Counted from the stretch's first letter, positions 638 through 64,000 are shown. The stretch: DNA of 64,000 nt from Planctomycetota bacterium (GCA_046306335.1 JBKDXM010000033.1:17199-81198); one strand, 5' to 3'. The notes: generated by a model from the letters alone, not told the origin. Made by a program: numbers and translations.

Positions 638-1761
638 CCCCGCGCCGCGCTGCCGCGTGGCGACGCGGCGGCCCGCTGGTCGGTCTGCTGGCGACGTGGC
701 TGCTGTTCGCGGTGTCGGCGGGCGGGCCGTTCCTGTCGTGGGCCAACCACGAACTGATGCTGCTGCAGACGGCGGTCGTCGGCGTCGCCGCCGTCGGCGC
801 GACGTGGGTGATCGTCGCCGGCGGCATCGACCTGGCCGTCGGCTCGACGATCGCGCTGTCCGGCATGGTCGGTGCGCTGGCGCTGCGCAGCGGCCTGCCG
901 TGGCCGGTCGCCACCCTCGCGACCGCGCTCGCCGGCGCGGCGGCCGGCTTCACCACCGGCGCGCTCGTCACCGGTGCGCTGCTGCGGCTGCTGCTCGCGG
1001 CCGGCGCGGGTATCGCCCTCGCAGCGGCGACCTACGGCATGGGAGCGCTGTCGGTCGGCGCGGCGAAGGGCGGCGGCGCCTTCCTCGGCTGGACCGCCGC
1101 CGGCGCGGGCGCGGGCGCGGCGTGCGCCGTCTGGCTGGCGCTGCCGCGGCTGCGCTGGGTACTGCCGCTGTCGCCGTTCATCGTCACGCTCGGCCTGTGG
1201 GGCGCCCTGCGCGGGCTCGCCAAGGGCCTCGGTGGCAACCAGCCGGTCTACTTCCCGCGCCACGACGAACTCGCCGCGCTGATGCTGCCGGGCACGGGGC
1301 TGCTGCCGACCGGCGTGTGGGTGCTGCTTGCCGTCGCTGCGGTCGCCGCCTTCGCGCTGCGCCGGACGGTCTTCGGCCGCCACGTGCAGGCCTTTGGCCA
1401 GAACCGCGAGGCGGCGCGGCAGTCGGGGCTCGACGTGGTCAGCCTCGAACGCCGCGTGTACGTCGTCGCCGGCCTGTGCGCCGGCATCGCCGCCGTGCTG
1501 CAACTCAGCTACCTGTCGATGGGCGACCCGACGACGGCGCAGGGGTACGAACTGAAGGCGATCGCCGCGGCCGTCATCGGCGGCGCATCGCTGGCCGGCG
1601 GCGCGGGCTCGATCGTCGGCACGCTGGTCGGCGCCTTCGTGATGACGATCGTCGACAACGGCTGCACCAAGCTCGGCCTCGACAACTGGGTCCAGGAAGT
1701 CGCCACCGGCGCGATCATCGTCGGCGCGGTCGCCCTCGACCGACTGCGGTCGCGCGGCTGA
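634..1761 (+). CDS. ABC transporter permease, RbsC/AraH-like
   Basis: ORF 634..1761. It is a multi-TM hydrophobic protein with AGGIDLAVGS and GGASLAGGAGSIVGTLVGAF motifs typical of ribose-type ABC permeases. It is translationally coupled to the binding protein. Confidence 0.85.
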   Translation: MTPRRAAAWRRGGPLVGLLATWLLFAVSAGGPFLSWANHELMLLQTAVVGVAAVGATWVIVAGGIDLAVGSTIALSGMVGALALRSGLPWPVATLATALAGAAAGFTTGALVTGALLRLLLAAGAGIALAAATYGMGALSVGAAKGGGAFLGWTAAGAGAGAACAVWLALPRLRWVLPLSPFIVTLGLWGALRGLAKGLGGNQPVYFPRHDELAALMLPGTGLLPTGVWVLLAVAAVAAFALRRTVFGRHVQAFGQNREAARQSGLDVVSLERRVYVVAGLCAGIAAVLQLSYLSMGDPTTAQGYELKAIAAAVIGGASLAGGAGSIVGTLVGAFVMTIVDNGCTKLGLDNWVQEVATGAIIVGAVALDRLRSRG

Positions 1762-1878
1762 CGGCTGCCGACGACGCGCCGCCCGTGCCGACGGCGGTTC
1801 GGGCACCGCCCGGCATCGGGGACCCCGGTGGCACCGCGGCACCGCTTGCCAAGCAACGGCCTGCTGCGCCCGCCGCTC

Positions 1879-1918
1879 GATGCACTATATCTCACCAAAT
1901 GGGGTGCATCCGATGCGC
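1879..1918 (+). promoter_or_regulatory. Candidate operator/promoter region upstream of boxC
   Basis: This is the only AT-rich stretch of the 230-nt intergenic region. It holds the inverted repeat GATGCAC(1879-1885)-N18-GTGCATC(1904-1910), followed by a GATGCGC half-site (1912-1918). TGCA-containing repeats recall BzdR/BoxR-type operators; that comparison is from memory only. Confidence 0.25.
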
Positions 1919-1990
1919 TATCTTGCTTGAACTAGCAGTTGGCCGAAACCAGACTGTGTGACCCGTTCGCCGCCCTCTCCCGCCCCCTAG

Positions 1991-3613
1991 ATGACCGACT
2001 TCAACCGACACCCGAGCAGCTACCACCACTGGCAGCTGCAGATCGACGGCGACGTCGCGCACCTGCGCATGAACGTCGACCCGGCCTTCCCCTTCAAGCC
2101 GGGCTACGAGCTCAAGCTCAACAGCTACGACCTCGGCGTCGACATGGAGCTCGCCGACGCGGTGCAACGGCTGCGCTTCGAGCACCCTGAGGTCAAGGCG
2201 CTCGTCGTCGGCAGCGGCCAGGAGCGCGCGTTCTGCGCCGGGGCCAACATCTGGATGCTGGCGGAGAGCACGCACCCCTTCAAAGTGAACTTCTGCAAGT
2301 TCACCAACGAGACGCGGCTCAGCCTGGAGGACTACAGCCAGCACAGCGGCGTCAAGTCGATCTGCGCGGTCAACGCCGCGTGCGCCGGCGGCGGCTACGA
2401 GCTGGCGCTGGCTTGCGACGAGATCCACCTCGTCGACGACAGCAACTCGGCGGTGTCGCTGCCCGAGGTGCCGCTGCTGGCCGTGCTGCCGGGCACCGGC
2501 GGCCTCACGCGCCTCGTCGACAAGCGCAAGGTGCGCCGCGACCGCGCGGACGTGTTCTGCACGATGGCCGAAGGCATGCGCGGCAAGAAGGCCGTCGCCT
2601 GGGGCCTCGTCGACGCGGCGTGGAAGAAGTCGCAGTTCGCCGACAGGGTGAACGCGCGCGCCAAGGAGTTGGCGGCGCAGGCCCCGGCCAAGGCGCCGAG
2701 AGGCATCGTGCTCGACCCGATCCGCGCCAAGGTCGAAGGCGCCACCTACAAGTACGAGTACGTCGCGTGCGTCGTCGACGCCGGCGCGCGCAAGGCGACC
2801 ATCACCGTCCACGCGCCGCAGGGCCCGCAGCCGAAGGACGGCCCCGGCTACGAGCAGGCCGGCTGCAAGGCCTGGGCGCTGCAGTGCTGGCGCGAACTCG
2901 ACGACGCGCTGCTGCAGCTGCGCTTCGACCACGAGGAGGTCGGCCTGATCGTGCTGCAGACGCGCGGCGACCGCGCGGCGATCCTGCAGGTCGAGAAGGA
3001 CCTGTTCGCCCAGCGCTCGCACTGGCTCGTCAACGAGATCCTGCGGCACATGGCGCGCGTGCTGCGCCGCTTCGACCTGATGGCGCGCTCGACGTACGCG
3101 CTGGTCGACGGCGACGCCTGCATGGCGGGCGCGTTCCTGGAGCTGACGCTGGCCTGCGACCGCGTCTACATGCTCGACGACGACAAGGTGCACGCCGCGG
3201 TCGGCCCGCTGAGCGCTGGCCTGCTGCCGATGAGCCACGGGCTCACGCGCCTGCAGAACCGCTTCCTGGCGCAGCCCGAGCACGCCGCGAAGCTGGCGGC
3301 CGATCAGCCGACGCTGACGGCGGCCGAGGCCGACGAGCAGGGCCTGTGCACCTACCTGCTCGACCCGGTGGACTGGGAGGACGACGTGCGCATCGCGCTC
3401 GAGGAGCGCGTGTCGCTGTCGCCCGACGCCCTCACCGGCATGGAGGCGTCGCTGCGTTTCGGCGGCGCCGAGAACTGCGACAGCAAGATCTTCGGTCGGC
3501 TCAGCGCGTGGCAGAACTGGATCTTCACGCGTCCGAACGCGACCGGCGACGAAGGGGCACTGACCCGTTACGGCGCGCCCGAGAGCGCCAAGTTCGATTG
3601 GCGGAGAACCTGA
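1991..3613 (+). CDS. boxC: 2,3-epoxybenzoyl-CoA dihydrolase / benzoyl-CoA-dihydrodiol lyase BoxC (crotonase superfamily)
   Basis: ORF 1991..3613, 540 aa. It carries a crotonase signature (AFCAGANI, CAGGGYELALACD) in a double-length enoyl-CoA hydratase-like protein. Its size and its position directly upstream of boxB match the BoxC I recall from Azoarcus/Burkholderia. Confidence 0.88.
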   Translation: MTDFNRHPSSYHHWQLQIDGDVAHLRMNVDPAFPFKPGYELKLNSYDLGVDMELADAVQRLRFEHPEVKALVVGSGQERAFCAGANIWMLAESTHPFKVNFCKFTNETRLSLEDYSQHSGVKSICAVNAACAGGGYELALACDEIHLVDDSNSAVSLPEVPLLAVLPGTGGLTRLVDKRKVRRDRADVFCTMAEGMRGKKAVAWGLVDAAWKKSQFADRVNARAKELAAQAPAKAPRGIVLDPIRAKVEGATYKYEYVACVVDAGARKATITVHAPQGPQPKDGPGYEQAGCKAWALQCWRELDDALLQLRFDHEEVGLIVLQTRGDRAAILQVEKDLFAQRSHWLVNEILRHMARVLRRFDLMARSTYALVDGDACMAGAFLELTLACDRVYMLDDDKVHAAVGPLSAGLLPMSHGLTRLQNRFLAQPEHAAKLAADQPTLTAAEADEQGLCTYLLDPVDWEDDVRIALEERVSLSPDALTGMEASLRFGGAENCDSKIFGRLSAWQNWIFTRPNATGDEGALTRYGAPESAKFDWRRT

Positions 3614-3617
3614 CACC

Positions 3618-5036
3618 ATGAGCACCGTCGACCTCGAAGCGAAGATCCCGAACAACGTCGGACTGCGCGACAACAAGCGCCTGACCATGGCGCTGGAGAA
3701 GTGGCAGCCGAAGTTCCTCGACTGGTGGAAGAACGTCGGCCCGAGCGACTTCAACCAGAACGAGGTCTACCTGCGCACCGCCGTCGGCGTCGGCCAGGGC
3801 GGCTGGGCGCACTACGACTACGTGAAGATGCCGGACTACCGCTGGGGCATCTTCCTCGCGGACGGTCCCGCCGACCGCAAGATCCACTTCGGCGACATGA
3901 TCGGCGAATCGGCGTGGGCCGAGGTGCCGGGCGAGTTCCGCAACCGCCTGCGCCGCCTGATCGTCACGCAGGGCGACACCGAGCCGGCGTCGGTCGAGCA
4001 GCAGCGCCTGCTGGGCCACTGCTGCCCGTCGCTCTACGACCTGCGCTCGCTGTTCCAGATCAACGTCGAGGAAGGCCGTCACCTGTGGGCGATGGTCTAC
4101 CTGCTGCACACGTACTTCGGCGGCGACGGCCGTGACGAGGCCGACGCGATGCTGGAACGCCACAGCGGCGACCAGGACAACCCGCGCATCCTGCAGGCGT
4201 TCAACTACCCGGTGACCAACTGGCTGGACTTCTTCTGCTTCACGGCCTTCATGGACCGCGACGGCAAGTACCAGCTCAGCTCGCTCGCCGAGTCGAGCTT
4301 CGACCCGCTCGCGCGCACGACGCAGTTCATGCTCGCCGAGGAGGCCTACCACCTGCAGACCGGCGAGAACGGCGTCGGCCGCATCGTCAAGCGCACCGGC
4401 GAGCTGATGATGCAGGGCCAGGACCCGCGCAAGGTCGGCGCGATCCCGCTGGAGATCGTCCAACGCTACGTGAACTTCTGGTTCACCGGCTCGATCGACC
4501 TGTTCGGCGGCGAGGACAGCACCAACGCCGCCGAGTCGTTCGCCAACGGCCTCAAGGGCCGCTACCGCGAGAGCGACGGCATCTACAAGGACCCGAAGGC
4601 GCTCAACGCCAACTACGTCCTCGAGGTGCCGACCGAGGACGGCAAGATCAGCAAGCAGGAGATCCCGCTGCGCCGCGCCATGAACGCGGTGCTGCTGGAC
4701 GCCTACATCGCCGACTGCAAGCGCATCGTCGAGCGCTGGAACCGCGACCTCGAGAAGCTGGGCGTCAAGGAGCGCATCAGCCTCCCGGACCGCAAGTTCC
4801 ACCGCTACCAGGGCGTGTACGCCGGCTTCCGCTTCGCGCCGACGGGCGAGCTGATCGACGAGGCGACCTGGACCAAGCGCCACACCGAGTGGCTGCCGAC
4901 CCAGGCCGACCGCGACTACGTCAACTCGTGCATGGTCAAGGTGACCGAGCCGGGCAAGTTCGCCAACTACATCGCCCCGCCGCAGCACGGCGTGAACGAG
5001 AAGGCGGTCGAGTTCGAGTACGTCAAGTTCCACTGA
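3618..5036 (+). CDS. boxB: Benzoyl-CoA 2,3-epoxidase (oxygenase) subunit B, di-iron protein
   Basis: ORF 3618..5036, 472 aa. By recall it is nearly colinear with Azoarcus BoxB (IVTQGDTEPASVEQQR, NVEEGRHLWAMVYLLH, DNPRILQAFN, FMLAEEAYH, KFANYIAPP...FEYVKF). Confidence 0.93.
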   Translation: MSTVDLEAKIPNNVGLRDNKRLTMALEKWQPKFLDWWKNVGPSDFNQNEVYLRTAVGVGQGGWAHYDYVKMPDYRWGIFLADGPADRKIHFGDMIGESAWAEVPGEFRNRLRRLIVTQGDTEPASVEQQRLLGHCCPSLYDLRSLFQINVEEGRHLWAMVYLLHTYFGGDGRDEADAMLERHSGDQDNPRILQAFNYPVTNWLDFFCFTAFMDRDGKYQLSSLAESSFDPLARTTQFMLAEEAYHLQTGENGVGRIVKRTGELMMQGQDPRKVGAIPLEIVQRYVNFWFTGSIDLFGGEDSTNAAESFANGLKGRYRESDGIYKDPKALNANYVLEVPTEDGKISKQEIPLRRAMNAVLLDAYIADCKRIVERWNRDLEKLGVKERISLPDRKFHRYQGVYAGFRFAPTGELIDEATWTKRHTEWLPTQADRDYVNSCMVKVTEPGKFANYIAPPQHGVNEKAVEFEYVKFH

Positions 5037-5066
5037 TCGGCCGGGTTCCACCGATCGGCCGGGATC

Positions 5067-5117
5067 GGCCGGCGAGCGATCGCCGGCCGCCGCGCGCGGC
5101 CCCGACGCGGGCCGCGC
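5067..5117 (+). terminator. Two strong GC hairpins between boxB and the ferredoxin gene (possible terminator/attenuator or processing site)
   Basis: Hairpin 1 is GGCCGGCGA-GCGA-TCGCCGGCC (5067-5088, 9 bp). Hairpin 2 is GCGCGGCCC-CGACGC-GGGCCGCGC (5094-5117, 9 bp), followed by CCCCTTTGCG. The U-tract is weak. Confidence 0.3.
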
Positions 5118-5139
5118 CCCCTTTGCGCCTCACACAGCC

Positions 5140-5475
5140 ATGAGCAATCGACTCTGCTACGTCTGCGAAGGCGGCGACTGCACCGAGAAGGGCGGCGGCG
5201 AGCTCTTCGACCGGCTGCGCGACCTGATCAAGAAGTTCGACCCGGCCGAGGAGCGCATCAAGATCCGGCGCTACCCGTGCTTCGGCGCGTGCGACCAGGG
5301 CATCAACGTCACGCTGTACCCCGACAAGATCTTCTATAGCAAGGTGACGCTGGCCGACCTGCCGGAGATCGCCGCCCACATCGAGGGCAAGGGCCAGCCG
5401 GTGACGCGACTCACGGGCAAGTGCCAGCCCGACGTCGAGCAGATCATCTGGGACATGCTCGACAGCCCGTACTGA
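5140..5475 (+). CDS. Thioredoxin-like [2Fe-2S] ferredoxin domain protein
   Basis: ORF 5140..5475, 111 aa. Its Cys pattern is C-x4-C (CEGGDC) ... C-x3-C (CFGAC), as in NuoE-type/thioredoxin-like 2Fe-2S ferredoxins. Confidence 0.8.
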   Translation: MSNRLCYVCEGGDCTEKGGGELFDRLRDLIKKFDPAEERIKIRRYPCFGACDQGINVTLYPDKIFYSKVTLADLPEIAAHIEGKGQPVTRLTGKCQPDVEQIIWDMLDSPY

Positions 5476-5502
5476 CCGGCGCGGCGGCGCCCCCGCCCCC
5501 GC

Positions 5503-7323
5503 TCACGGCGCGATCGTCACGCCGACCGGCTGGCTCCAGCACTTGATCGTGTGCTGCCACGCCGGATCGAGGGTGATGCCGGCGACGTAGGACGTCACGC
5601 CGATCAGCCACGTCTCGTTCGGGATCGTCAGCGTGCACTGCGCCTGATCGCCGGGACCGAGCGTCGTCCAGGTCGGCGCCAGGAACGGATTGCCGGTGAG
5701 GGCCAGTTCGAGCAGGAAGTCGGCGTTCAGCGGCAGCGTGCGCTGCCCGCCGAGCGCGATGCCCGGCGCCGTGCCGAGCGACCAACCGAACAAGACCTGC
5801 TTGCCGGCGTCGCCGGGCGAGCCGTAGGTGAAGACGACCTGCGTGCCGATGCTGCCTGAACCGGACTTGCTCAGCGTGGGCGTCGGCCCGGTCGGCTCCA
5901 GGAACACGTCGAGGGCCGCGCCCTGGTCGAGCGCCGCGACCGTCACCGGCACGGTCTTGCTGGCGTGCCCCGGCGCGCTGAAGGTCACCGACCACGCGCC
6001 GGTCGGCAGCCACAGGCCGTAGCGGCCGTCGCGCGCGCGGCCCTTCGTCACCTCGCCGTGGTTGAGCACGGCGGGGCTGAACGTGATCGTCGCGGCGAGC
6101 GGCGCGCCACCCAACGCGCTGCGGACGTGGCCGCGGCGGGCCGGCATCCACTGCAGCAGCGCGTCGCGGACGCCGGGCCAGACGCGCGCCTCCTCGGTGA
6201 CCGTCGCCGCGAACGCCGGCTGGAAGTCCGTCCCGACCTCGATCAGGTACGACAACGTGCCGCCGGACGAGTAGTGGTCCTCGGGGGCCTCGCCCGACGC
6301 CGACGGATCGCGCGTGTCGTAGGCCATCGGCGCGCGCAGCCGATCGCCGTACGCCTGCTGGAAGGCCTGCATCGTCGGATGCACGTTCGCGCACGGCGCC
6401 CACAGCCGCAGCACGTCCTGGCCGTAGCTGTGGAAGTCGAGGTAGACCTCGGGCCGCAGCCACGCGACGAGGTTGCGCAGCGTGACGGTCTCCGGCTCGC
6501 TGCCGGCCGCGGGCCCGCGGTAGGTGTCGGAACTCGCCGTCGCCGAGGCGCCGCAGAGCCCCCACAGGAACGGGTAGTTGCGGTTGAGGTCGACGCCGAA
6601 GCTGCCGCCGTTGTTGCGGCGGTTCTTGCGCCACAGGCTGTTGACGTTCCACACGTGGTGGACGCCGTCGGGATTGGCCATCGGCACGAACCACAGTTCG
6701 CGGCCGTCGACGAGCGCCTGGATCTGCGGATCGGTCGCGCGGTCGCCGAGGATGCGCTGCATCGCGCGCACCACCATGTGCGGCGAGTTGAGTTCGCGCG
6801 CGTGGTGCTGTGCTGCCAGCACGACCGCCGGCTCGTCCTCGTCGCTGGCGACGTTGTCGCTGACCTTCAGCGCGAAGACGCGGCGGCCCTCGTGCGTCAG
6901 CGCGCCGCCGGGCAGTGCGCTGAGGTCGACCTTGCGCGCGTACGCCGGGTAGGCGAGCACCAGAGCGTCGATCTCCGCCTCGATCTCGGCGACCGTGTAG
7001 TAGCTCGCGTCGGGATCGATGCCGGCGGCCAACTGCTCCTGCTCGACGAGGTGCCAGGGGCGGCCGTCGCTGACCAACGCCGCCTGCGGCGCGATCGCCA
7101 GCAGCAGCGGCACGGCCGCCGCGTCGGCGACGACGTCGACCGGCCCGGCCGCCGACGGCGCGCCACAGCACGCCCCGGCGACGTCGAAGTGCTGCTGCAG
7201 CAGCAGGCGCTGGCCCGGCGTCGGGTTGCGCACGAGGTAGCGCGCAGCCCCGCGTTGGGCGCTGGCGGTCGCCGCCAACGCGAGGAGGACCGCCGCGGGG
7301 ATCAGGGAGCGAGGGATGGGCAT
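5503..7323 (-). CDS. Secreted M14-family zinc carboxypeptidase with CarboxypepD_reg-like and C-terminal beta-rich domains
   Basis: ORF 5503..7401 trimmed to ATG 7323, which gives the signal peptide MPIPRSLIPAAVLLALAATASAQ. M14 motifs are present: QHHARE, PMANPDG, NRNYP, DFHSYG. A beta-sandwich segment follows (GRYGLWLPTGAWSVTFSAPGH). Confidence 0.85.
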   Translation of the reverse strand: MPIPRSLIPAAVLLALAATASAQRGAARYLVRNPTPGQRLLLQQHFDVAGACCGAPSAAGPVDVVADAAAVPLLLAIAPQAALVSDGRPWHLVEQEQLAAGIDPDASYYTVAEIEAEIDALVLAYPAYARKVDLSALPGGALTHEGRRVFALKVSDNVASDEDEPAVVLAAQHHARELNSPHMVVRAMQRILGDRATDPQIQALVDGRELWFVPMANPDGVHHVWNVNSLWRKNRRNNGGSFGVDLNRNYPFLWGLCGASATASSDTYRGPAAGSEPETVTLRNLVAWLRPEVYLDFHSYGQDVLRLWAPCANVHPTMQAFQQAYGDRLRAPMAYDTRDPSASGEAPEDHYSSGGTLSYLIEVGTDFQPAFAATVTEEARVWPGVRDALLQWMPARRGHVRSALGGAPLAATITFSPAVLNHGEVTKGRARDGRYGLWLPTGAWSVTFSAPGHASKTVPVTVAALDQGAALDVFLEPTGPTPTLSKSGSGSIGTQVVFTYGSPGDAGKQVLFGWSLGTAPGIALGGQRTLPLNADFLLELALTGNPFLAPTWTTLGPGDQAQCTLTIPNETWLIGVTSYVAGITLDPAWQHTIKCWSQPVGVTIAP

Positions 7324-9356: not shown

Positions 9357-10463
9357 TCACTTCGCGGCAGCCAGCTTGCCAACCAGGCCCTTGGCGACTT
9401 CGGTCGCCGCGTCGCCGTCGTGGCCGCGGTAGTGGATGCGGCCCTCACCGTCGAGCACCACGATCGTCGGCCAGCCCTGGATCGCCCAGGCCTTGGGGAT
9501 CGGACCGCGCGTGCCATCGGGTCCGGCGTGGAAGCTGCGCCAATTGAGCTGGTTGTCGGCGACCGCCTTCTTGGCGCGCGCGATGTCCTTGTCGCTGTTG
9601 ACGCCGATCAGGGCGAACGGCTTGTCCTTCATCTCATCCACGAGCGACCGCTCGTGCGGGTACATGGCCCGGCAGGGGCCTCACCAGTCGCCCCAGAAGT
9701 CGAGGAAGACCACCTTGCCGCGGTAGTCGGAGAGCTTGAAGGCGACGCCGTCGAGGTCCGTGCCCTCGATGTCCGGCGCGACGACGCCGACGCCGAACTT
9801 CTCGCGCGTGTCGATGGCCTCGCGGATGCGGTCCTTGAGGTCCGCGTTGCTGGCGAGTTCGACGATCTTGGTCAACTCGCTCTTCGCGCCCTGGTAGAGG
9901 TCCGACTCGCGGTCCGCAGTCTCGATCGTCTTCTCGTGCTTGGCGAACACCGCCCAGCCGCGCACGTCGGCATTCGCGCTCTTGGCGAACTTCTCGGCGA
10001 TCGCCGGGGCCTTCTCCTCGCCGACGATGCGCGGCAAGAAGCCGATCAGGCTGCCGATCTGCGCCGTGGCCGGGTGGTCGGCGAACTTCTCGCCGAGGAG
10101 CGCCAGCGCGTCGGCCGCGCCGGCGCGGTCGGCGCCGACCGCAAGCAGGAGGAACGGCACGGCGTCGTCGCCGTCGGTCATCTCCTTGGCGGCGGCGAGC
10201 GCCTGCTTGCCGATCGCGCTGGTGTCGGGGCGCATCGGCATCGCCGGCGCCGGCTTGCCGTCTTTCTTGGCGGCTTCGGCCTCGGCCGCCATGGCCTTGA
10301 CCTTCGCCATCCACTCGTCGCTCAGCTTCGTCTGCTCGGCCTGCAGCGCGGCGTACCGCTCGGCCGCGGCCGGACTCTTCGGCGTCGGCTGCGGCGGCCG
10401 CTGCTGCGCCGCGAGGGTCGCCGCGAGCAACAGCGGCAGCGCCCACTTCGTGATCGTTCGCAT
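9357..10463 (-). CDS. TlpA/ResA-like periplasmic thioredoxin with in-frame UGA at the active site (probable selenoprotein, W-U-G-P-C); otherwise a disrupted pseudogene
   Basis: ORFs 9681..10514 and 9357..9665 share one frame. The junction reads ...GKVVFLDFWGDW-TGA(9683..9681)-GPCRAMYPHE... The start was chosen at ATG 10463, giving the signal peptide MRTITKWALPLLLAATLAAQQ. The C-terminal part (WPTIVVLDGEGRI) is a thioredoxin fold. Confidence 0.7.
9639..9656 (-). promoter_or_regulatory. Candidate bacterial SECIS apical hairpin
   Basis: The mRNA sense sequence CACGAGC-GGUC-GCUCGUG has a 7-bp stem and a GGUC tetraloop. The stem starts 24 nt after the UGA. An additional GGCCC-CUGCC-GGGCC hairpin lies immediately 3' of the UGA (9666..9680). 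Confidence 0.5.
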
Positions 10464-10626
10464 CGGGTCTCCGGGGGTTGGACGCGGCGCAACCTGCGCC
10501 GCGCTCCGGATCATGCCGCGCCCGCACCGCCGGCGGCACGGGCCAGCGTCCCGTTCGTGTCGCGGCGCGGGCGCAGGGCGGATCCCGCGCGTGCGGCGAC
10601 GGCCGCGCCGCGGCTAGAGTCCGGCG

Positions 10627-11454
10627 ATGACCGCGCGCGCCGCCGTGCATCGCCTGCTCGAAGCCTCGCCGCCGACGCGAGCGGCGGCCGCGTTGCGGGC
10701 AGCGCTCGCCGGCCTGATCGTGATCAACGTCGCCGCCGTCGTCGCCGACTCGGTGCGCGACGTGCACGCCGTCGCGCTGCAGTGGCTGCGCGCGATCGAG
10801 TGGGTCTCCGTCACCGTCTTCAGCGCCGAGTACCTGCTGCGGCTGTGGGTCGCGCCGGAGCAACCGCGCTTCGGCCGACCGTTCGGCCGGGTGCGCTGGG
10901 CACTGACGCCGTCGGCGCTGGTCGACCTGCTCGCCGTGCTGCCGAGCCTGTTGGCGATGGCGTCGCTCGACCTGCGCACGCTGCGGCTCGTGCGCTTGGC
11001 GCGGCTGTTCCGCATCGCCAAGCTCGGCCGCTACAGCCTCGCCGTGCAGACGCTGTTCGCGGTGCTGCGCAGCAAGGCCGCCGACCTGCTGTCGCTGCTG
11101 TTCGTCCTCGTGATCCTGCTCGTCGTCACCTCGACGCTGATGTTCCACCTCGAGGGCGAGGCGCAGCCGAACGTCTTCACCAGCATCCCGGCGACGATGT
11201 GGTGGGGCATCGTCACGCTGACGACGATCGGCTATGGCGACATGGCGCCGGTGACCGCCGCCGGACGCGCGCTCGGCGGCGTGGTCGCCGTGCTGGGAAT
11301 CGGCATGTTCGCGCTGCCGGCCGGCCTGCTCGGCGCCGCGTTCGTCGACGAACTCGGCAAGCTGCGCGCGGCGCGGCACGGCGACGGTCACGCCGCCGGT
11401 GAGCACGGCGGCGGCGCGCACTGCCCGCACTGCGGCAAGGCGCTGGAACCGTAG
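10627..11454 (+). CDS. Voltage-gated K+ channel (6-TM Kv-type)
   Basis: ORF 10627..11454. The S4 helix is RTLRLVRLARLFRIAKLGR and the selectivity filter is TLTTIGYGD. Confidence 0.9.
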   Translation: MTARAAVHRLLEASPPTRAAAALRAALAGLIVINVAAVVADSVRDVHAVALQWLRAIEWVSVTVFSAEYLLRLWVAPEQPRFGRPFGRVRWALTPSALVDLLAVLPSLLAMASLDLRTLRLVRLARLFRIAKLGRYSLAVQTLFAVLRSKAADLLSLLFVLVILLVVTSTLMFHLEGEAQPNVFTSIPATMWWGIVTLTTIGYGDMAPVTAAGRALGGVVAVLGIGMFALPAGLLGAAFVDELGKLRAARHGDGHAAGEHGGGAHCPHCGKALEP

Positions 11455-11558
11455 CCGCCGCACGGTCGGTGACGACAGCGCCGACGATGGTGCCGAGGAA
11501 CGCGGCGCGGCGCGGCGCGATCGCTGACGGCGCGCACCGCGCCGGCCGCGACCGCGCG

Positions 11559-12827
11559 ATGGAACGCCGCCGCCGCGCCCCTACCATCCGCGCCGTGCAT
11601 CCGAACCTGCTGCTGCCCGCGCGCGCGTCGACGGGCCCTGAATCGCTCGCCGAGTACCGCGCCCGCGGCGGCTACGACGGCCTCGCGACCGCGGGTGCCC
11701 GTGGCGCGGCATGGCTGCGCGGCGAGGTCGCCACGGCGCAGCTGCGCGGCCGCGGCGGCGCGTCGTTCCCGACGGCGCGCAAGTGGGAACTGGCCGCCAA
11801 CGCCGCCGGCGACGAGAAGTTCGTCGTCGGCAACGGCGGCGAGCACGAGCCCGGCAGCGACAAGGACAAGGTCCTGGTCGCGCGCCATCCGCACGCCGTG
11901 CTCGAAGGCCTGCTGCTCGCCGGCCTCGCCACCGGCGCCAGCAAGGGCTGGATCTACCTGATCGAGGACATGCACGGCCCGCGCGGTTCGATCGAGCAGG
12001 CGATCGCCGAGGCGCAGGCCGCCGGGCTGCTGCCGTTCCCGGTCGCGGTGCACCTCGGCCCCACCACCTACGTCGCCGGCGAGGAGACCGCCGCGCTCAA
12101 CGCCATCGAGGGCAAGCCGGCGAAGCCGCGCAAGAAGCCGCCGTTCCCGGGCGACGCCGGCCTGTTCGGCAAGCCGACGACGGTCAACAACGTCGAGACG
12201 CTGGCGCACGTGGCCTGGATCGCGCGCCACGGCGGCGCCGCGTTCGCCGCGATCGGCACCGCCGAGAGCAAGGGCACGCTGTTGTTCACGCTGCCCGATG
12301 GCGTGCAGCGCCCCGGCGTGCACGAAGCGCCGTTCGGCGTCACCTACCGCCAGCTGATCGAGCAGGTCGGCGGCGGCCTGCAGGACGGCCGGACGGTGCG
12401 CGGCGTGCTGCCGGCGATGTCGAGCGGCTTCCTCGGCGCGGACGCGCTCGACGTGCCGATCGCCTACGAGACGCTGCGGCCGCTCGGCAGCTCGCCGGGG
12501 TGCGGCGGCGTGCGCATCGTCGACGACCGCACCGACGTCGTCGCGCTGGCGGTCGAGATCGCCGAGTTCTTCATGCGCGAGCAGTGTGGCCAGTGCCCGC
12601 CGTGCCGCATGGAGACCAACCAGTTCGTGCACATCCTCAAGGCCGTGCAGCAGCACAAGGGCCCGGGCTACGACGACAAGGTCCGCAAGCTCGCCGAGTT
12701 CTCGCGCAAGAAGGGCTTTTGCTCGCTGATCGAGATGGCGGCCGCCCCCGTCGTCAGCGCGCTCAGCGTCTTCGCCGCCGACTTCGCGGCCGCGGCCGGT
12801 CCTGGCCAGCCGGGCGGCGCGTCGTGA
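11559..12827 (+). CDS. NuoF-like NADH-binding FMN/[4Fe-4S] flavoprotein (51-kDa subunit family), stand-alone
   Basis: ORF 11469..12827. Motifs present: RGRGGASFPTARKW, GNGGEHEPGSDKDK, and the Fe-S motif EQCGQCPPCRME...C. The start is uncertain (ATG 11469, 11487 or 11559, or GTG 11595). Confidence 0.75.
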   Translation: MERRRRAPTIRAVHPNLLLPARASTGPESLAEYRARGGYDGLATAGARGAAWLRGEVATAQLRGRGGASFPTARKWELAANAAGDEKFVVGNGGEHEPGSDKDKVLVARHPHAVLEGLLLAGLATGASKGWIYLIEDMHGPRGSIEQAIAEAQAAGLLPFPVAVHLGPTTYVAGEETAALNAIEGKPAKPRKKPPFPGDAGLFGKPTTVNNVETLAHVAWIARHGGAAFAAIGTAESKGTLLFTLPDGVQRPGVHEAPFGVTYRQLIEQVGGGLQDGRTVRGVLPAMSSGFLGADALDVPIAYETLRPLGSSPGCGGVRIVDDRTDVVALAVEIAEFFMREQCGQCPPCRMETNQFVHILKAVQQHKGPGYDDKVRKLAEFSRKKGFCSLIEMAAAPVVSALSVFAADFAAAAGPGQPGGAS

Positions 12828-13975
12828 GCTTCCATCGCTACTACGCGGCGTGCACGCTCGGGCTCGAGAAGGTGCTCTACGACGAACTGCGCGCGCTCGG
12901 CGCCGACAACGTCGAACAGCGCCGCGGCGCCTGCTCCTTCACCGGCGACCGCGCGATGGGCTACGCCGCGTGCCTGTGGCTGCGCTCGGCGGTGCGCGTG
13001 CAGGAGGAGCTGGTCCGCGGCCCGGCGCACGACCGCGACGAGCTGTACGCGCTCGCCCGCGAGGTCGACTGGACGCAGAGCATCACCTACCTGCAGACGC
13101 TCGCCGTCGACGGGTCGGTGCGCGACAGCTTCGCCAACGACACGCGCTTCCCGGGGCTCGTCGTCAAGGACGCCATCTGCGACCAGATGCGAGAGCGGTT
13201 CGGCAAGCGGCCCAACGTCGAGAAGGACCGCCCCGACCTGCCGGTCAAGCTCGTGCTGCAGGGCAACGAAGCGATCCTCTACCGCGAGCTCGGCGGCGCG
13301 CCGCTGCACAAGCGCGGCTACCGCGAGATCCAGCACAAGAGCCCGCTCAACGAGGCGACCGCCGCCGGCCTCTTGCTGCTGACCGGCTGGAACCGGCAGA
13401 CGCCGCTGTGCGACCCGATGTGCGGCTCGGCGACGTTCCTGGTCGAGGCGGCGTGGCTGGCGACCGACCGCGCGCCCGGCCTCGGCCGCAGCTTCGCGTT
13501 CGAGCGCTGGAAGGACGTCGACGTCGACGCGTGGCGCAAGCTGTTCGACGACGCCGAAGCGCGGGCCCAGCGCGGCGCCAGCAAGCTGCCGCCGATCTGC
13601 GGCAACGACCGCCATCCTGGCGCCATCGCCATCGCGCGGCAGGCGCTGACCGCCGCGGGCCTCGCCGACCGCATCGAAGTGCACCAGGGCGACGTCGCCG
13701 AGTTCGTGCCGCCGACGCGGCCCGAGCTGGTCGTCACCAACCCGCCGTACGGCGACCGCCTGCAGAGCGACCCGGTGGCGCTGGAGCAGAGCTGGTCGGC
13801 GCTCGGCCGCTTCCTGCACACGCAGTGCCAGGGTGCTATGGCGTGGGTGCTGTGCGGCAACGCCGACGTCACGCGGCTGCTGGGCCTGCGCGCGACGGAG
13901 AAGCTGCCGGTCAAGAACGGGCCGATCGACTGCCGGTGGTTGAAGTACGAGGTCGACGAGCGGGTGCGGGAGTAG
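12824..13975 (+). CDS. THUMP-domain class I SAM-dependent RNA methyltransferase (RlmL/UPF0020-like)
   Basis: This is the in-frame tail of ORF 11711..13975. The GTG start at 12824 overlaps the upstream stop (GTGA). Motif I is DPMCGSATFLVEAA and motif IV is TNPPYGDR. The N-terminal half is THUMP-like. Confidence 0.85.
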   Translation: MSFHRYYAACTLGLEKVLYDELRALGADNVEQRRGACSFTGDRAMGYAACLWLRSAVRVQEELVRGPAHDRDELYALAREVDWTQSITYLQTLAVDGSVRDSFANDTRFPGLVVKDAICDQMRERFGKRPNVEKDRPDLPVKLVLQGNEAILYRELGGAPLHKRGYREIQHKSPLNEATAAGLLLLTGWNRQTPLCDPMCGSATFLVEAAWLATDRAPGLGRSFAFERWKDVDVDAWRKLFDDAEARAQRGASKLPPICGNDRHPGAIAIARQALTAAGLADRIEVHQGDVAEFVPPTRPELVVTNPPYGDRLQSDPVALEQSWSALGRFLHTQCQGAMAWVLCGNADVTRLLGLRATEKLPVKNGPIDCRWLKYEVDERVRE

Positions 13976-14038
13976 CGGGCGGGGCGGAGGGCGGGAAGGT
14001 CGATGGCGACGGCGGCAACGACGGTCGCCCGAACCGCC

Positions 14039-21489: not shown

Positions 21490-24400
21490 TCACGGCAACA
21501 CGCCGCAGACCGCGGAAGACTCCCCGTCGGCCTCGTACTCACCCAGCCGGAACACGATCGTCCGGTAGTTGCGGATGTCGAGCACGGCGAGCGACTGGAT
21601 GGCGCGCAGGGCCATCAGGTCGCGGCGCACCGCCGGCCCGAGCGCGGCCGCCCGGCGCAACGTCGCGTCGCAGGCTTCGTCCGGCGACGCCCCCGGCGGC
21701 AGCGCCCGCCACGCATCGACGACCGCGCGCGCGCCGCCGAGGTCGGCGTTGTAGGCGGCGCGCAGGGCGCGCAACTCGACTGCGGCGAGCCCGCGCGGAT
21801 GGCGCTGGGCCCAGGCGTCGACCGGGTGGCGGACGCAGAGGCCGCGCAGCGCCAGCCAGACCCGCTGCGCCATGCCGTCGCCGACGCCCTGGCGGACGAG
21901 TTGCACCGTCGACTCGGCCAGCCACCGTTCGGCCCGGGCGAGCGTGCGGCAGCGGTCGACGTCGCACAGCCACGCCATCGTCGCCGCCTGCTCGCCCGCT
22001 GCGTCGCCGCACGCCAGCGGCCGCGCCGCCTGCCGCGCGTGCAGCGCCGTCACCTGCGCCCGCGCCGCCGCGGCCAGTTCGCGCAGCTGCGCGGCGTCGC
22101 GCTCCCGCACGTGCAGGAAGCGCAGGTCGCGCTCGCACGGCGGCTCGGCCGCGAACGCCGCGTCCGCCGACCAACCCGCCGGCGCGCCGGCGTACCCGGG
22201 GTCGAGCAGGAGGCGCATGCGGATCGCCTCCAGCAGCCCCGGCGCCTTCATGCGGTGGATCTTGCGCAGCGCCACCGCGATCGGCGCCTCGCCGGCCTCG
22301 CGCCGCTGCATCGCCAGCTCCGGATCGAGCACCTCGCGGACGACCTGCCGCACGCGGCCGACGAGCCAGCCGAGCGACCGCAGCGTGCGCCACGCCAGCA
22401 GCAGCGGCAGCAGCAGCACGCGGCCGCGCGACAGCCGCCGGCGGAAGAAGCGCAGCGGGTTGAAGCTGCGGTCGTGCTTGGGCAGCCGGTGCACGGGCCG
22501 CGTGCCGAAGACCTCGCGCACCATCTTGCGCCGGTCGGCGCGCAGCACGGCCAGCACCTCGTCGCCGAACACCGCCGCGAGGTGGCGGTCGCGCTCGGGG
22601 TCGCCGCCGACGAAGTCGAGCGCCGTGAACTCGGCCGCCGGGTAGGCGACGTCGGCGCGCGGCAGGCGCTCCTTCAGCGTGCGCCCGCCGCGCGGGTCGC
22701 GGCGGCGCGCCAGCCAGTCCGCCATCGCCGCCTTCGCCGCGGGCGAGGCCACGGCGAGCTCGGCGAGCGGGATGCAGTAGCGGTTGTAGCCGGCGATGCG
22801 CTTGGCGGCCTCGACGGCGAGGCTCTCGGTGATGAAGCGGAACCAGAGGAACGGCCCGCGCAGGATCGTGCCGTCGTCGAGCTTGAGGTCGCGCAGGCGC
22901 TTGCGGGCGCGCGCGTCGAGGCCGAGGAACGCCTGCCGCAGGTTCTCCAGCGACTGGCTGGCGAGCAGCTGCTCGGTCGTCTGCACGTCGCTGGCGTGCA
23001 GCGGCGCGCCGTCGAGGTAGTGCAGGTAGAGCAGGATCGCGCGGTTGGCCTCGTGGCGGACCCACTCGGGCACGCCGTCGCCGGCGACCGGCACGCCGGT
23101 GCGCGCGCAGGCGAGCTGCGCCGCCAACTGGCCGCGCGCCGCCGCCGCACCGTCGGGGCCGAACACGCGGCGGGCGAGGAAGTCGAGGTCCTCCGCTTCG
23201 TGCCGGTTCTTCTCGCGCTCCAGCTGCGAGAGGAAGTGCGCCTCGCTGGTCAGCCGGTAGGCCTCGGAGGCCTGCCCGGCGAGGCGCTTGAGCCAATGGC
23301 CGACCAGCAGCAGCACGAGGCAGACGGCGCCGAGCAGGTACAGCGACCGGCTGAAGGTGGCGATGCCGAGCAGCGAGAACACGCCGCCGAACAGGATCAG
23401 GCGCACCGCCGGCCGCTGCGTCGCCTTGACCAGCGCCGAAGCGAAGCGGTCGAGGATCTGCGGCCCGGTGACGATGCCGTGCAGGTCGGCGAAGAACAGC
23501 ATCCGGTCGTGCCAGCCGTCGAGCTGCGCGGCGAGCCGCCGCGCCGCCGCGACGACGCGCTCCTCCGGCGTCGCCGGCAGTGGATGCACCGCGAGGCGCG
23601 CGACGAGCGGCAGCCCGCGCACCGGCCACGCCGACAGCACGCGCACGACGCGGTCGAGCGCCTGCACGTCGGCGGACCGCAGCCAGCGACCGAGGTCCTG
23701 CGGCCGCAGCGCCCACAGCGCCGCGATGGCGTCGGCGATCGGCAGGTCGCGGCCGGCGGCGGCGTCGACGCGGCGCGGCCGCGGTCCGGCGACGACGGCC
23801 TGCGTCGCCGCGCGCACGGCGAGGCCGCGGACGGCGACGGCGGCGCGGCGCTCGTCGGCCGGCGCCAGCGCCAGCAGTTCGTGCTCGCGCCGCAGCAGCG
23901 CGAACAGCAGGTCGCGCTCGTCCTCCTGCGGTTCGGTGCGGCCGATGTCGGCGGCCGCGGGTACGAACACGAACTCGCGGTTGAGCAGCGGCGCGAAGCG
24001 CGCGACGAGGCCGTCGAGGCCGCGCACCAGGAACAGGAGCAAGCGCGCCGAACGCACGATCGGCCGCAGCGACTGCACGTAGCGCGCCGCCCAGGTGACG
24101 CGCAGCAGCCGCAGCACGCGCACCGCGACGAGCCCGTCGGCGGCGGCGATCGCCGACGGCGTCGGCAGCAGGAACAGCACCGCCGGGATCGCCGGCACGA
24201 GGTCGGTCAGCGCGTTGCGCGCGAACCACGACCAGCGCGCCGGGTGCAGCACGAGCTCGAAGGCGAAGTCGGCGATGAAGAACAGGCACGCCAGCGCGTC
24301 GACCCAGTGCAGCGCCGCGAGCCAGCCGTCGGGCAGCTCGACCGTCGCCTCGACGACGAGCGTCGTCAGCACGACGAGCAGCAGCGCGAAGTTCGCCGTC

Positions 24401-25035
24401 TCCAGCGCGGCGACGCCGCGGCGGCCGAGCCGCTGGTCGAGGCGGCGCGCGAGTTCGCGGTCGTCGGCGGCGCGGCGCAAGCGGCGGCCGAGTCGCCGGC
24501 AGGCGAGCGAGCCGGTGCGCGCCGCCAGCTTCTGCAGCGCCGTCGCGGTGCACGCGAGCAGCAGCGGTTGGTGCGCCAGCGGCACGTCGTCGATCGCGGT
24601 CGCCAGCAGCGCGAAGCGTTCGTTGGCCTCCTGGTCGACGGCCGCGTCGACCGGCAGGCGGCCGACCGCGTCGTCGAGCGCCGTCGCGCACGCCGCGGCG
24701 AGCGCGGCCTCGTCGGCGGCGAGCGCCGCGGCGCGCACCTCGGCGAGGTCGCAGACGACGGCGGCGTCGACCGGCCCCTGCTGCAGCCAGCGCAGGCGCG
24801 CCGCGAGCCACTCGCGCCGGCCGGCGGCGAAGTCGTCGGCGGGCAGGCCGAGCGCGTCCCATTGGCGCGCGAGCCAGCGCACCTCGACGGCGAGCAGTTC
24901 GGCGGCGAGCGGTCCAGCGCCCGCGCGCGCGGCGCGCAGCGCGGCGAGGTCCGCGGCGTGCCCGGCGGGCGACGCCGCCGCGCCGTACAGCGCGGCGCGC
25001 AACTGCTCCAGGCTCGGCAGCGAAGGCGTGGTCAT
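21490..25035 (-). CDS. Large (1181 aa) membrane protein with a voltage-sensor-like S1-S4 domain, no recognisable pore, and long uncharacterised cytoplasmic regions
   Basis: ORF 21490..25035 has normal amino-acid composition, unlike the overlapping frames. S2 is FFIADFAFELVLH. S3 is NALTDLVPAIPAVLF. S4 is VRVLRLLRVTWAARY. A later TM hairpin is RLILFGGVFSLLGIATF-SRS-LYLLGAVCLVLLLVG. I recognise no further domains. Confidence 0.7.
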   Translation of the reverse strand: MTTPSLPSLEQLRAALYGAAASPAGHAADLAALRAARAGAGPLAAELLAVEVRWLARQWDALGLPADDFAAGRREWLAARLRWLQQGPVDAAVVCDLAEVRAAALAADEAALAAACATALDDAVGRLPVDAAVDQEANERFALLATAIDDVPLAHQPLLLACTATALQKLAARTGSLACRRLGRRLRRAADDRELARRLDQRLGRRGVAALETANFALLLVVLTTLVVEATVELPDGWLAALHWVDALACLFFIADFAFELVLHPARWSWFARNALTDLVPAIPAVLFLLPTPSAIAAADGLVAVRVLRLLRVTWAARYVQSLRPIVRSARLLLFLVRGLDGLVARFAPLLNREFVFVPAAADIGRTEPQEDERDLLFALLRREHELLALAPADERRAAVAVRGLAVRAATQAVVAGPRPRRVDAAAGRDLPIADAIAALWALRPQDLGRWLRSADVQALDRVVRVLSAWPVRGLPLVARLAVHPLPATPEERVVAAARRLAAQLDGWHDRMLFFADLHGIVTGPQILDRFASALVKATQRPAVRLILFGGVFSLLGIATFSRSLYLLGAVCLVLLLVGHWLKRLAGQASEAYRLTSEAHFLSQLEREKNRHEAEDLDFLARRVFGPDGAAAARGQLAAQLACARTGVPVAGDGVPEWVRHEANRAILLYLHYLDGAPLHASDVQTTEQLLASQSLENLRQAFLGLDARARKRLRDLKLDDGTILRGPFLWFRFITESLAVEAAKRIAGYNRYCIPLAELAVASPAAKAAMADWLARRRDPRGGRTLKERLPRADVAYPAAEFTALDFVGGDPERDRHLAAVFGDEVLAVLRADRRKMVREVFGTRPVHRLPKHDRSFNPLRFFRRRLSRGRVLLLPLLLAWRTLRSLGWLVGRVRQVVREVLDPELAMQRREAGEAPIAVALRKIHRMKAPGLLEAIRMRLLLDPGYAGAPAGWSADAAFAAEPPCERDLRFLHVRERDAAQLRELAAAARAQVTALHARQAARPLACGDAAGEQAATMAWLCDVDRCRTLARAERWLAESTVQLVRQGVGDGMAQRVWLALRGLCVRHPVDAWAQRHPRGLAAVELRALRAAYNADLGGARAVVDAWRALPPGASPDEACDATLRRAAALGPAVRRDLMALRAIQSLAVLDIRNYRTIVFRLGEYEADGESSAVCGVLP

Positions 25036-25188: not shown

Positions 25189-26178
25189 TCACCAGGGCCG
25201 GCCGAAGGCGGCGAGCCCGGCGGGTTGTTCGCCGAGGTGCTGCAGCGTGAAGCGGCGGCTGAAGCCCTCGCCGACCGCGTCGATCTCGATGCGGGTCACC
25301 ATGCCGGTCGCTTCGTCGCACAGCAGCCACGCCGAGCGCAGCCGCGCGCGCACGTCGTCGCGCTTGCTCTCGGCCTCGATGCGCAGCTGCGGCCGGCCGT
25401 CGGCGCCGGCCTCGCGGGCGACGACGCGCAGTTCGCAGTCCTCCGGCAGCCGCCGCACGAGCGCGTGCACGTCGAGGTAGCCGAGGTCGATGACGTCGCC
25501 GAAGCGCTGCTGCAGGCGGTCCTTGTCGGCGAACGGCGTCGCCAGCCGGAAGCCGCCGTTGCCACCGAGCGCCCAGACTTCGCCGCCGTCGCAGCCGAGC
25601 GTGAACTCGCCGAACTGCACGCCGCCGAACTCGAGCCGGCCATCGAGGCGGAAGCGGCCGCCCGGGCTGGTGACGAGCCCGAACTCGTGGCGGGCGCGCT
25701 CGCGGCCGGCCGCGCCGCTGCGCACGACCTCGACGTGGAAGCGCTGCGCGACGTCGCGCGCCAGCGCCTGCACCGCCCGCTCGACCGCCGCCGCGGCCGT
25801 CGGCAGCGACGCCGGCAACAGCGCCCAGAAGCCGACCGTCGCCAGCAGCAGCGCGGCGGCCGCGACCGCGAACCAGCGCCGCACGCCGCCGGCGTGCGAC
25901 CGGGCGTCGATGCGCGCGAGCACCGCGGCGATGCGGCCCTCGCGCGCCGCCGCGTCCTGCGAGTGCAGCGCGCGCAGCAGGCCGTGCATCGTGCGCTGGT
26001 CGGCGAGCCACTCCTTGGCTTCGGCCGGCGCATCGCCGGGGAGCGGGTCGTCGGCCAGCGTGTCGTCGTAGGCGCGCCAGGCGTCGGGCACGAGCTCGCG
26101 CCCACGCTCGCCGCGCGGGAGGGAATCGCCATCGCGCGGCAGCGCGCCGTCGTCGTCGCGTTCGTCGTGCTGGCTCAT
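25189..26178 (-). CDS. Putative anti-sigma factor (single-pass membrane protein with periplasmic domain)
   Basis: Tail of ORF 25189..27723, from ATG 26178. It overlaps the ECF sigma stop (ATGA). It has an acidic N-terminal ~110 aa, one TM helix (WFAVAAAALLLATVGFWALL) and a ~200-aa extracytoplasmic domain. The assignment rests on position. Confidence 0.6.
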   Translation of the reverse strand: MSQHDERDDDGALPRDGDSLPRGERGRELVPDAWRAYDDTLADDPLPGDAPAEAKEWLADQRTMHGLLRALHSQDAAAREGRIAAVLARIDARSHAGGVRRWFAVAAAALLLATVGFWALLPASLPTAAAAVERAVQALARDVAQRFHVEVVRSGAAGRERARHEFGLVTSPGGRFRLDGRLEFGGVQFGEFTLGCDGGEVWALGGNGGFRLATPFADKDRLQQRFGDVIDLGYLDVHALVRRLPEDCELRVVAREAGADGRPQLRIEAESKRDDVRARLRSAWLLCDEATGMVTRIEIDAVGEGFSRRFTLQHLGEQPAGLAAFGRPW

Positions 26179-63315: not shown

Positions 63316-63372
63316 CGGGGCGCGAGGATAGCAGCGGCGCACGTCTGGCATAGGCGCGCGCCCGCGGCCAAG

Positions 63373-64000
<628 letters not shown>

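Follow-up and report, generated by a model that had tools for sequence, protein, structure and literature searches.

The stretch of DNA analyzed here, called the window below, comprises 64,000 nucleotides with a GC content of about 73% from a Planctomycetota bacterium (GCA_046306335.1, JBKDXM010000033.1:17199-81198). On its plus strand lie, one after the other, boxC (positions 1991..3613), boxB (3618..5036), and a short gene that we call fdx (5140..5475), which encodes a protein of 111 amino acids. An earlier note on this DNA had described boxC and boxB as adjacent and the third gene as encoding a protein with a C-x4-C...C-x3-C pattern; its coordinates are right, and both enzymes pass their equivalog cut-offs. 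The 540-residue boxC product, a predicted 2,3-epoxybenzoyl-coenzyme A (CoA) dihydrolase, scores 736.8 bits against TIGR03222 (equivalog cut-off, 712.3) over residues 3 to 539 and is 52% identical to the annotated BoxC of Mycetohabitans. The 472-residue boxB product, the predicted di-iron subunit of benzoyl-CoA 2,3-epoxidase, scores 669 bits against TIGR03225 (equivalog cut-off, 499.1) over residues 4 to 471, is 57% identical to Mycetohabitans BoxB, and matches the Azoarcus BoxB structure 3PER in the PDB with an E value of 2.4e-170. The alignment with 3PER shows the EExxH and D...EExxH motifs and conserves all of the residues that we take to be the six di-iron ligands (E120, E150, H153, D211, E240, and H243 in Azoarcus numbering). 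By equivalog score and ligands, the window BoxB is a predicted benzoyl-CoA epoxidase. Because BoxB is intact and has its six iron ligands, it needs a source of electrons.

The canonical cluster, as annotated in RefSeq for the Mycetohabitans megaplasmid, has the order boxR / boxC boxB boxA. BoxA is a single polypeptide in which a ferredoxin with two [4Fe-4S] clusters is fused to an FNR-like reductase that uses flavin adenine dinucleotide (FAD) and NADPH; it binds BoxB transiently and is required only in small amounts (PMC4498308), for which reason the reductase looks exchangeable. Since boxC-boxB-boxA is the canonical order and boxC-boxB-fdx the order here, fdx occupies the boxA slot. Canonical BoxA, benzoate-CoA ligase, and BoxR proteins gave no tblastn match in the 64-kb window (E ≤ 1e-3). 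Pfam scans of 46 window open reading frames (ORFs; 45 of the 51 predicted genes plus one gap ORF, covering all of at least 250 amino acids except the cut gene at 62038-63999) found no AMP-binding ligase, no aldehyde dehydrogenase (boxD), no FNR/Fer4 protein, and no helix-turn-helix (HTH) plus SKI regulator. Both kinds of search thus agree with the earlier note, which had seen none of these pathway genes in the 64 kb. It had also recognized the ATP-binding cassette (ABC) components upstream of boxC as sugar-type; they are ribose-type, RbsB-like and RbsC-like.

What, then, is the protein encoded in the boxA slot? Its four cysteines (C9-x4-C14...C47-x3-C51) are the same in all of 29 aligned homologues, whose identity goes down to 51%, and these homologues share a largely invariant C-terminal tail, DVE(E/Q)IIWDMLDSPY, the conserved tail being DVEQIIWDMLDSPY. 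A profile of the Fdx family matched the N-terminal [2Fe-2S] domains of HydB-type proteins in the PDB (7q4v_B, E value of 4e-13; 7t2r_B, 5e-13) as well as Aquifex Fd4 (5.8e-12), and the four cysteines align with those of the HydB N-terminal domains. The AlphaFold2 model of Fdx has a mean confidence (pLDDT) of 89.3, and Foldseek matched it with a probability of 1.00 and TM scores of 0.72 to 0.77 to 7q4v_B, 1m2a, and 5abr. By cysteine pattern, profile, and model, Fdx is predicted to be a thioredoxin-like [2Fe-2S] ferredoxin of a divergent subfamily, and it presumably binds a [2Fe-2S] cluster. Its homologues form about 100 clusters, and those with a source name are labeled Planctomycetota or Planctomycetes.

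The position next to boxB is a property of the family. A scan of GTDB, with one genome per species and the fdx alignment as the query, found fdx in 106 species. The best 80 of these 106 loci were fetched, almost all of them from Planctomycetota metagenome-assembled genomes, and with 78 metagenome loci they make up the 158 related loci considered here, each seen as a neighborhood of about 20 kb. By local tblastn, 79 of the 80 GTDB loci have boxB as the immediate upstream neighbor of fdx, the 80th contig starting at fdx itself, and the 67 that extend far enough all have boxC ahead of boxB. The order boxC-boxB-fdx is kept in 79/79 informative loci while BoxB identity drops to 58 to 75% in a divergent clade, and the fdx family was found almost solely beside boxB. 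All-versus-all clustering of the ORFs of the 80 loci revealed as conserved only boxC, boxB, fdx, a gene for a NuoF-like flavoprotein, BoxR, and clade-specific unrelated genes. Neither these 80 loci nor the 78 from metagenomes gave a tblastn match to BoxA. Hence, boxC-boxB-fdx is a conserved unit and a lineage-wide design. Among the genomes with this trio, OZ245006.1 (8.07 Mb), OZ245838.1 (7.19 Mb), and JBKAGP010000001.1 (6.59 Mb) are complete or nearly so. The co-occurrence of the ferredoxin with boxB where boxA is absent, which the earlier note had proposed to look for, is what the related loci display.

In a BoxB tree the relatives split into two clades, and the window belongs to clade II, in which BoxR is absent at the locus. 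In clade I, the sister clade, the identity of fdx to the window fdx does not exceed 66%, the genes are tightly packed, and a BoxR-type regulator is encoded divergently upstream of boxC. The earlier note had left a choice between a different electron-delivery chain and dispersal of the remaining genes. The slot that fdx occupies, the constancy of the trio, and the lack of BoxA nearby strongly support the former. Dispersal also holds in part: the window lacks the BoxR-type regulator that the sister clade encodes upstream of boxC, and it has neither the ligase gene nor boxD.

A few loci depart from the taxonomic pattern. In Nonomuraea gerenzanensis (NZ_LT559118.1, 5639765-5661174; our locus L084), a minus-strand ORF of 281 codons (11428-12273 of the locus) separates boxB from boxC. 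Judged from its sequence by eye rather than by a scan, we presume it to be PaaX-like. It is the only ORF between the two genes, and no BoxA, fdx, or NuoF-like gene was found within 10 kb; box loci without a linked BoxA therefore exist outside the Planctomycetota. The 2.49-Mb contig CBDEGF010000003.1 (L070) carries boxR / boxC boxB fdx and the NuoF-like gene and is labeled Candidatus Marinacidobacterales (Acidobacteriota), so either the cluster is present outside the Planctomycetota or the label is wrong. Two other contigs, labeled 'Luminiphilus' (L055) and 'Gordonia' (L020), are probably mis-binned.

In the window, boxB and fdx are separated by 103 nucleotides with two GC hairpins on the plus strand, the first (5066..5089) with a perfect stem of 10 bp and a loop of 4 nucleotides and the second (5094..5117) with a perfect stem of 9 bp and a loop of 6 nucleotides. 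The earlier note had stressed these as two strong hairpins. The perfect stems are indeed present, but the note gave them too much weight: the folding of the spacer is not in significant excess over dinucleotide shuffles in DNA of 73% GC (z scores of -1.4 and -1.1), and in many relatives the spacer measures only 0 to 45 nucleotides (34 of 78, in an overall range of 0 to 270). There is no T-tract 3' of the window hairpins, an Rfam scan of positions 1600-5700 at E ≤ 1 gave no match to a known RNA family, and a consensus scan of 1500-6000 for promoters and terminators showed neither sigma-70-like sites nor a terminator at the spacer, a result that is uninformative for Planctomycetota. The first hairpin is partly conserved in the closest relatives; the second is conserved in L004, L005, and L007, and its position is occupied by another hairpin in L008 and others. 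Among the relatives, 46 spacers reach 45 nucleotides or more, and on average these are more structured than their shuffles (mean z score of -2.5; 29/46 below -2). Within one clade the hairpins thus recur in variable form, and the short gaps in many relatives argue for co-transcription of boxB and fdx. One might speculate that the hairpins stabilize the transcript or act as partial attenuators that lower the expression of fdx relative to that of boxB, which would fit an electron donor that, like BoxA, acts transiently and in small amounts. In L017 the spacer (about 9757-10000, 244 nucleotides) contains a tandem palindromic unit of about 90 nucleotides with a z score of -6.5, and L031 has a similar duplicated element; these look like intergenic repeats of the repetitive extragenic palindromic (REP) kind and like a spacer expansion in one sublineage.

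A candidate for the reductase of Fdx, overlooked in the earlier note, lies about 6 kb downstream of fdx on the same strand, with unrelated genes in between. The ORF at 11469..12827, whose true start is probably near 11559 because homologues have 408 to 422 amino acids, encodes a stand-alone NuoF-like protein (PF01512, 121.3 bits; PF10589, 60.3 bits) with predicted sites for flavin mononucleotide (FMN), NAD(P)H, and a [4Fe-4S] cluster. It scores 329.7 bits against TIGR01959, below the equivalog cut-off of 558.65, and is therefore not a canonical NuoF. Its gene is not part of a nuo operon with nuoE and stands alone, beside rlmL or fdx. The GRGGAxFP motif and the cysteines of a C-x2-C-x2-C...C motif (343, 346, 349, and 388, numbered by the first sequence) are invariant in 10 sequences, and the best PDB matches are HydB, NfnB, and HoxF chains.

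In clade I the NuoF-like gene follows fdx after 17 to 91 nucleotides in four GTDB genomes (L062, L070, L071, and L072). In clade II it lies 2 to 8 kb downstream in nine loci with a full-length BoxB (eleven with L056 and L060) and farther away in the rest. A metagenome search started from the NuoF-like side found fdx directly preceding clade-I-type genes in 23 contigs, with BoxB upstream of the pair in 20/20 contigs that extend far enough; a clade-I-type gene with 1 kb or more of sequence before it but lacking fdx occurs in only 4 to 5 contigs. The clade-II-type genes of this search are followed by rlmL and, in most cases, lack fdx at a distance of 10 kb or less. In a tree of the NuoF-like proteins the window copy nests inside the box-linked copies, and the distance to fdx grows stepwise from 36 nucleotides to 1 to 4 kb, then 2 to 8 kb, and finally to unlinked genes; the BoxB tree shows the same split. 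Where the two genes are no longer linked, the genomes still contain the NuoF-like gene, at distances from fdx of 30 kb and about 2 Mb.

Homology ties the two proteins together as well. The HydB-type chain 7t2r_B is matched by the Fdx profile over residues 8 to 103 and by the window NuoF-like protein over residues 125 to 524, so that the predicted pair is colinear with single HydB-type chains, a domain-fusion (Rosetta stone) link. Distant pairs of Fdx-like (33 to 35% identity) and NuoF-like (40 to 42%) proteins are encoded at L159 (110-1619) and L150 (4671-8165) with no BoxB nearby, which suggests that the split module also exists in other contexts. On the 8.07-Mb chromosome OZ245006.1 (L001/L059), an IS110-family transposase gene (10617-11999) stands directly downstream of fdx, at the position of the NuoF-like gene in sister genomes, and the insertion may have displaced that gene.

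We hypothesize that in the Planctomycetota-type box operon boxC-boxB-fdx BoxA has been replaced by a two-protein chain of the NuoF-like protein and Fdx. From gene context and homology, we give this reading a probability of roughly 60%. In the proposed mechanism NAD(P)H would reduce the FMN of the NuoF-like protein, and the electrons would pass from there to its [4Fe-4S] cluster and on to the [2Fe-2S] cluster of Fdx; reduced Fdx would then deliver them to the di-iron center of BoxB. BoxB would epoxidize benzoyl-CoA, and BoxC would hydrolyze the epoxide and open the ring. The direction of transfer, the partners, and the nucleotide used are presumed, as is the assumption that the separated NuoF-like gene of the window still serves Fdx. 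We consider it quite probable that Fdx functionally replaces BoxA as an electron donor, which is the narrower claim. For the wider proposal, that Planctomycetota possess a three-component benzoyl-CoA epoxidase in which a split, previously unrecognized HydB-like module (the NuoF-like protein plus Fdx) has replaced BoxA, we see the case as evenly balanced.

Several observations weigh against the two-protein chain. Fdx stays below the thresholds of PF01257 (18.9 bits; threshold, 24.8), NF041613 (35.7; 195), and DUF1636 (24.6; 31.6). Only 19/80 GTDB loci have fdx and the NuoF-like gene no more than 10 kb apart, and clade-I-type genes at L093, L113, L117, and L153 lack an upstream fdx. In the window clade the NuoF-like gene usually belongs to another conserved block (S46 peptidase, thioredoxin-like gene, K+ channel, NuoF-like gene, RlmL), and with more than 120 clusters at a minimum of 73% identity the family seems to be no less widespread than fdx; the separate block and the wide spread imply that the NuoF-like protein may have a broader or different role in the window lineage. 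The spacer hairpins of the window could mean that fdx is transcribed separately. An unlinked BoxA gene elsewhere in the genome is possible, since the readable sequence consists of neighborhoods of about 20 kb and the 64-kb window, and the Nonomuraea locus, with neither a linked BoxA nor fdx, means that the missing linked boxA is by itself no proof of replacement.

These points feed three other explanations. Fdx might donate electrons to BoxB and be reduced by another enzyme, such as a generic ferredoxin-NADP reductase or a 2-oxoacid:ferredoxin oxidoreductase, the NuoF-like gene being a relic of synteny. Ferredoxin reductases are often encoded apart from their oxygenases, and a gene that in the window clade travels with rlmL and unrelated genes, mostly more than 10 kb from fdx, in a family apparently more abundant than fdx, would suit such a relic. 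We regard this explanation as unlikely in view of the boxB-fdx-nuoF-like operon in 23 metagenome contigs and 4 GTDB genomes, the orthology of the window protein with the operon-encoded copies, the fused homologues in HydB chains, and the retention of the gene in unlinked genomes. In loci with no NuoF-like gene, the Pfam-scanned genes downstream of fdx encode HtrA, transposase, sulfatase, and DUF389 proteins, besides glycosyltransferase-like proteins recognized by eye; neither these scans nor the ORF clustering of the 80 loci brought up another conserved reductase 3' of fdx.

Fdx could also be an accessory of BoxB, engaged in redox sensing, protection, or assembly and repair of the di-iron center, with the electrons coming from an unlinked BoxA or another direct reductase. 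Stand-alone thioredoxin-like ferredoxins are without firmly established physiological partners (PMC8561814), the BoxA search was confined to the neighborhoods and the window, and the actinomycete boxB without a linked BoxA or fdx shows that an unlinked reductase is conceivable. Such an accessory would nevertheless have to sit exactly in the boxA slot, keep its ligand cysteines invariant, share an operon with an NAD(P)H flavoprotein in the sister clade, and do so with BoxA in 0/158 loci; we therefore hold it to be improbable. That the adjacency is incidental, with boxA, the ligase gene, boxD, and boxR dispersed and the ferredoxin unrelated to the pathway, would agree with the window having no other box pathway genes, with its unrelated flanks (a sugar ABC transporter and peptidases), and with hairpins that could separate the transcripts. 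It is hard to reconcile with a trio that persists across two deep clades while the rest of the neighborhood changes, and with an fdx family found almost only in boxB context, and we give it very little credence.

Other partners or functions were considered and set aside. A gene of 334 codons between fdx and the NuoF-like gene in L002/L063 has no Pfam match and is not conserved elsewhere. Because BoxC releases formate, we considered Fdx and the NuoF-like protein as the diaphorase of a formate dehydrogenase; no molybdopterin catalytic subunit appeared in the 80-locus clustering or in the Pfam scans of the window. Among the scanned loci that lack the NuoF-like gene, only L017, in one sublineage, has fdx followed on the same strand by genes for a FAD_binding_3 monooxygenase and for an AMP-binding ligase (11311-13990). 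This ligase is about 25% identical to benzoate-CoA ligase and absent from the window; it could be the missing CoA ligase for aromatic acids.

Two further features of the window lie outside the box module. On the minus strand, two called ORFs at 9357-10430 form one gene for a TlpA/ResA-like protein with a thioredoxin fold, interrupted by an in-frame TGA at 9681-9683. The TGA stands for the first cysteine of the redox motif (FLDFWGDW-[TGA]-GPCR, that is, U-G-P-C), recurs in the same motif at 21 related loci, and is followed immediately 3' by the start of a GC hairpin (GGCCC-CUGCC-GGGCC). The gene probably encodes a selenoprotein, judging from these sequence features; no tRNA-Sec was found in the window. 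An ORF of 1,181 codons at 21490-25035, also on the minus strand, has a very strong coding signal (GC content at third codon positions of 0.97) and no Pfam match at E ≤ 1e-4. It adjoins a gene for an extracytoplasmic function (ECF) sigma factor (26175-26708) and an ORF of 329 codons without matches.

The box pathway serves as a genomic marker for aromatic degradation, and annotation pipelines score clusters lacking boxA as incomplete, as did a survey that treated box clusters without BoxA in this way (PMC10803450). The literature searched describes neither box genes in Planctomycetota nor a thioredoxin-like ferredoxin or NuoF-like reductase as part of a box cluster. Should Fdx together with the NuoF-like protein be the reductase, current rules would miss a functional box module in roughly a hundred Planctomycetota species. 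Fdx would then be the first stand-alone thioredoxin-like ferredoxin with a defined physiological partner, and BoxB would be the first case of a di-iron oxygenase that draws its electrons from a complex-I-type NADH-dehydrogenase module, illustrating that modules of the complex I and hydrogenase type can be recruited for this purpose. Because all four proteins are small and soluble, reconstitution in vitro should be straightforward.

The window system combines the same oxygenase and hydrolase as the known box system with what would be a different electron-delivery chain. With BoxABC of Aromatoleum (Azoarcus) evansii and the Burkholderiales it has in common the order boxC-boxB-[electron donor], equivalog-level BoxB and BoxC proteins, identical iron ligands in BoxB, and, in the Planctomycetota sister clade, a divergent BoxR-type regulator with HTH and shikimate-kinase-like parts. 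It differs in that BoxA is missing and its slot is occupied in the window by the 111-residue thioredoxin-like [2Fe-2S] protein, to which the sister clade adds the FMN/[4Fe-4S] NuoF-like protein. The cofactors and folds of BoxA are not those of the Fdx and NuoF-like pair, and one polypeptide corresponds to two.

The proposed chain resembles three-component di-iron monooxygenases more closely in its logic than in its parts. In systems of the toluene-4-monooxygenase type, electrons pass from a reductase to a Rieske ferredoxin and then to the hydroxylase. By analogy, the same scheme of an NAD(P)H flavoprotein, a small [2Fe-2S] carrier, and a di-iron oxygenase applies to these enzymes and to PaaABCDE, of which PaaA is a structural homologue of BoxB. 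The window carrier, however, is thioredoxin-like rather than Rieske or plant-type, and the candidate reductase is NuoF-like rather than FNR-like.

Among stand-alone thioredoxin-like ferredoxins, Aquifex aeolicus Fd4, the 2Fe ferredoxin of C. pasteurianum, and FeSI of A. vinelandii share the fold, the ligand pattern, and the approximate size of Fdx at 25 to 28% identity. The Fdx family differs from them by its conserved acidic and aromatic C-terminal tail. It also has an evident partner in the genome, boxB; for the known members, by contrast, no function has been settled (PMC8561814). The pairing of a C-x4-C...C-x3-C protein with an FMN/[4Fe-4S] NADH-binding protein recalls NuoE-NuoF of complex I and FdsG-FdsB of NAD-dependent formate dehydrogenase. 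The match of Fdx to NuoE is weak (E value of about 1e-3 or worse); the 24-kDa/NuoE chains matched have 150 to 250 residues, and Fdx, with its 111, is without the N-terminal helical domain of NuoE. The NuoF-like protein carries motifs of its own, ANGGEHEPGS and EQCGQCPPC, that set it apart from NuoF of complex I. The nearest counterparts of the predicted module are subunits of the HydB, HoxF, and NfnB type (for example, 7t2r_B, 7q4v_B, and 9bov_B) from NAD(P)H-linked hydrogenases and bifurcating complexes, in which an N-terminal thioredoxin-like [2Fe-2S] domain is fused to a NuoF-like FMN/[4Fe-4S] core. In the window, which has no counterpart of their C-terminal domain with two [4Fe-4S] clusters, of a NuoE/HydC-like partner, or of a hydrogenase subunit, the same two parts are encoded by separate genes in the context of an oxygenase operon.

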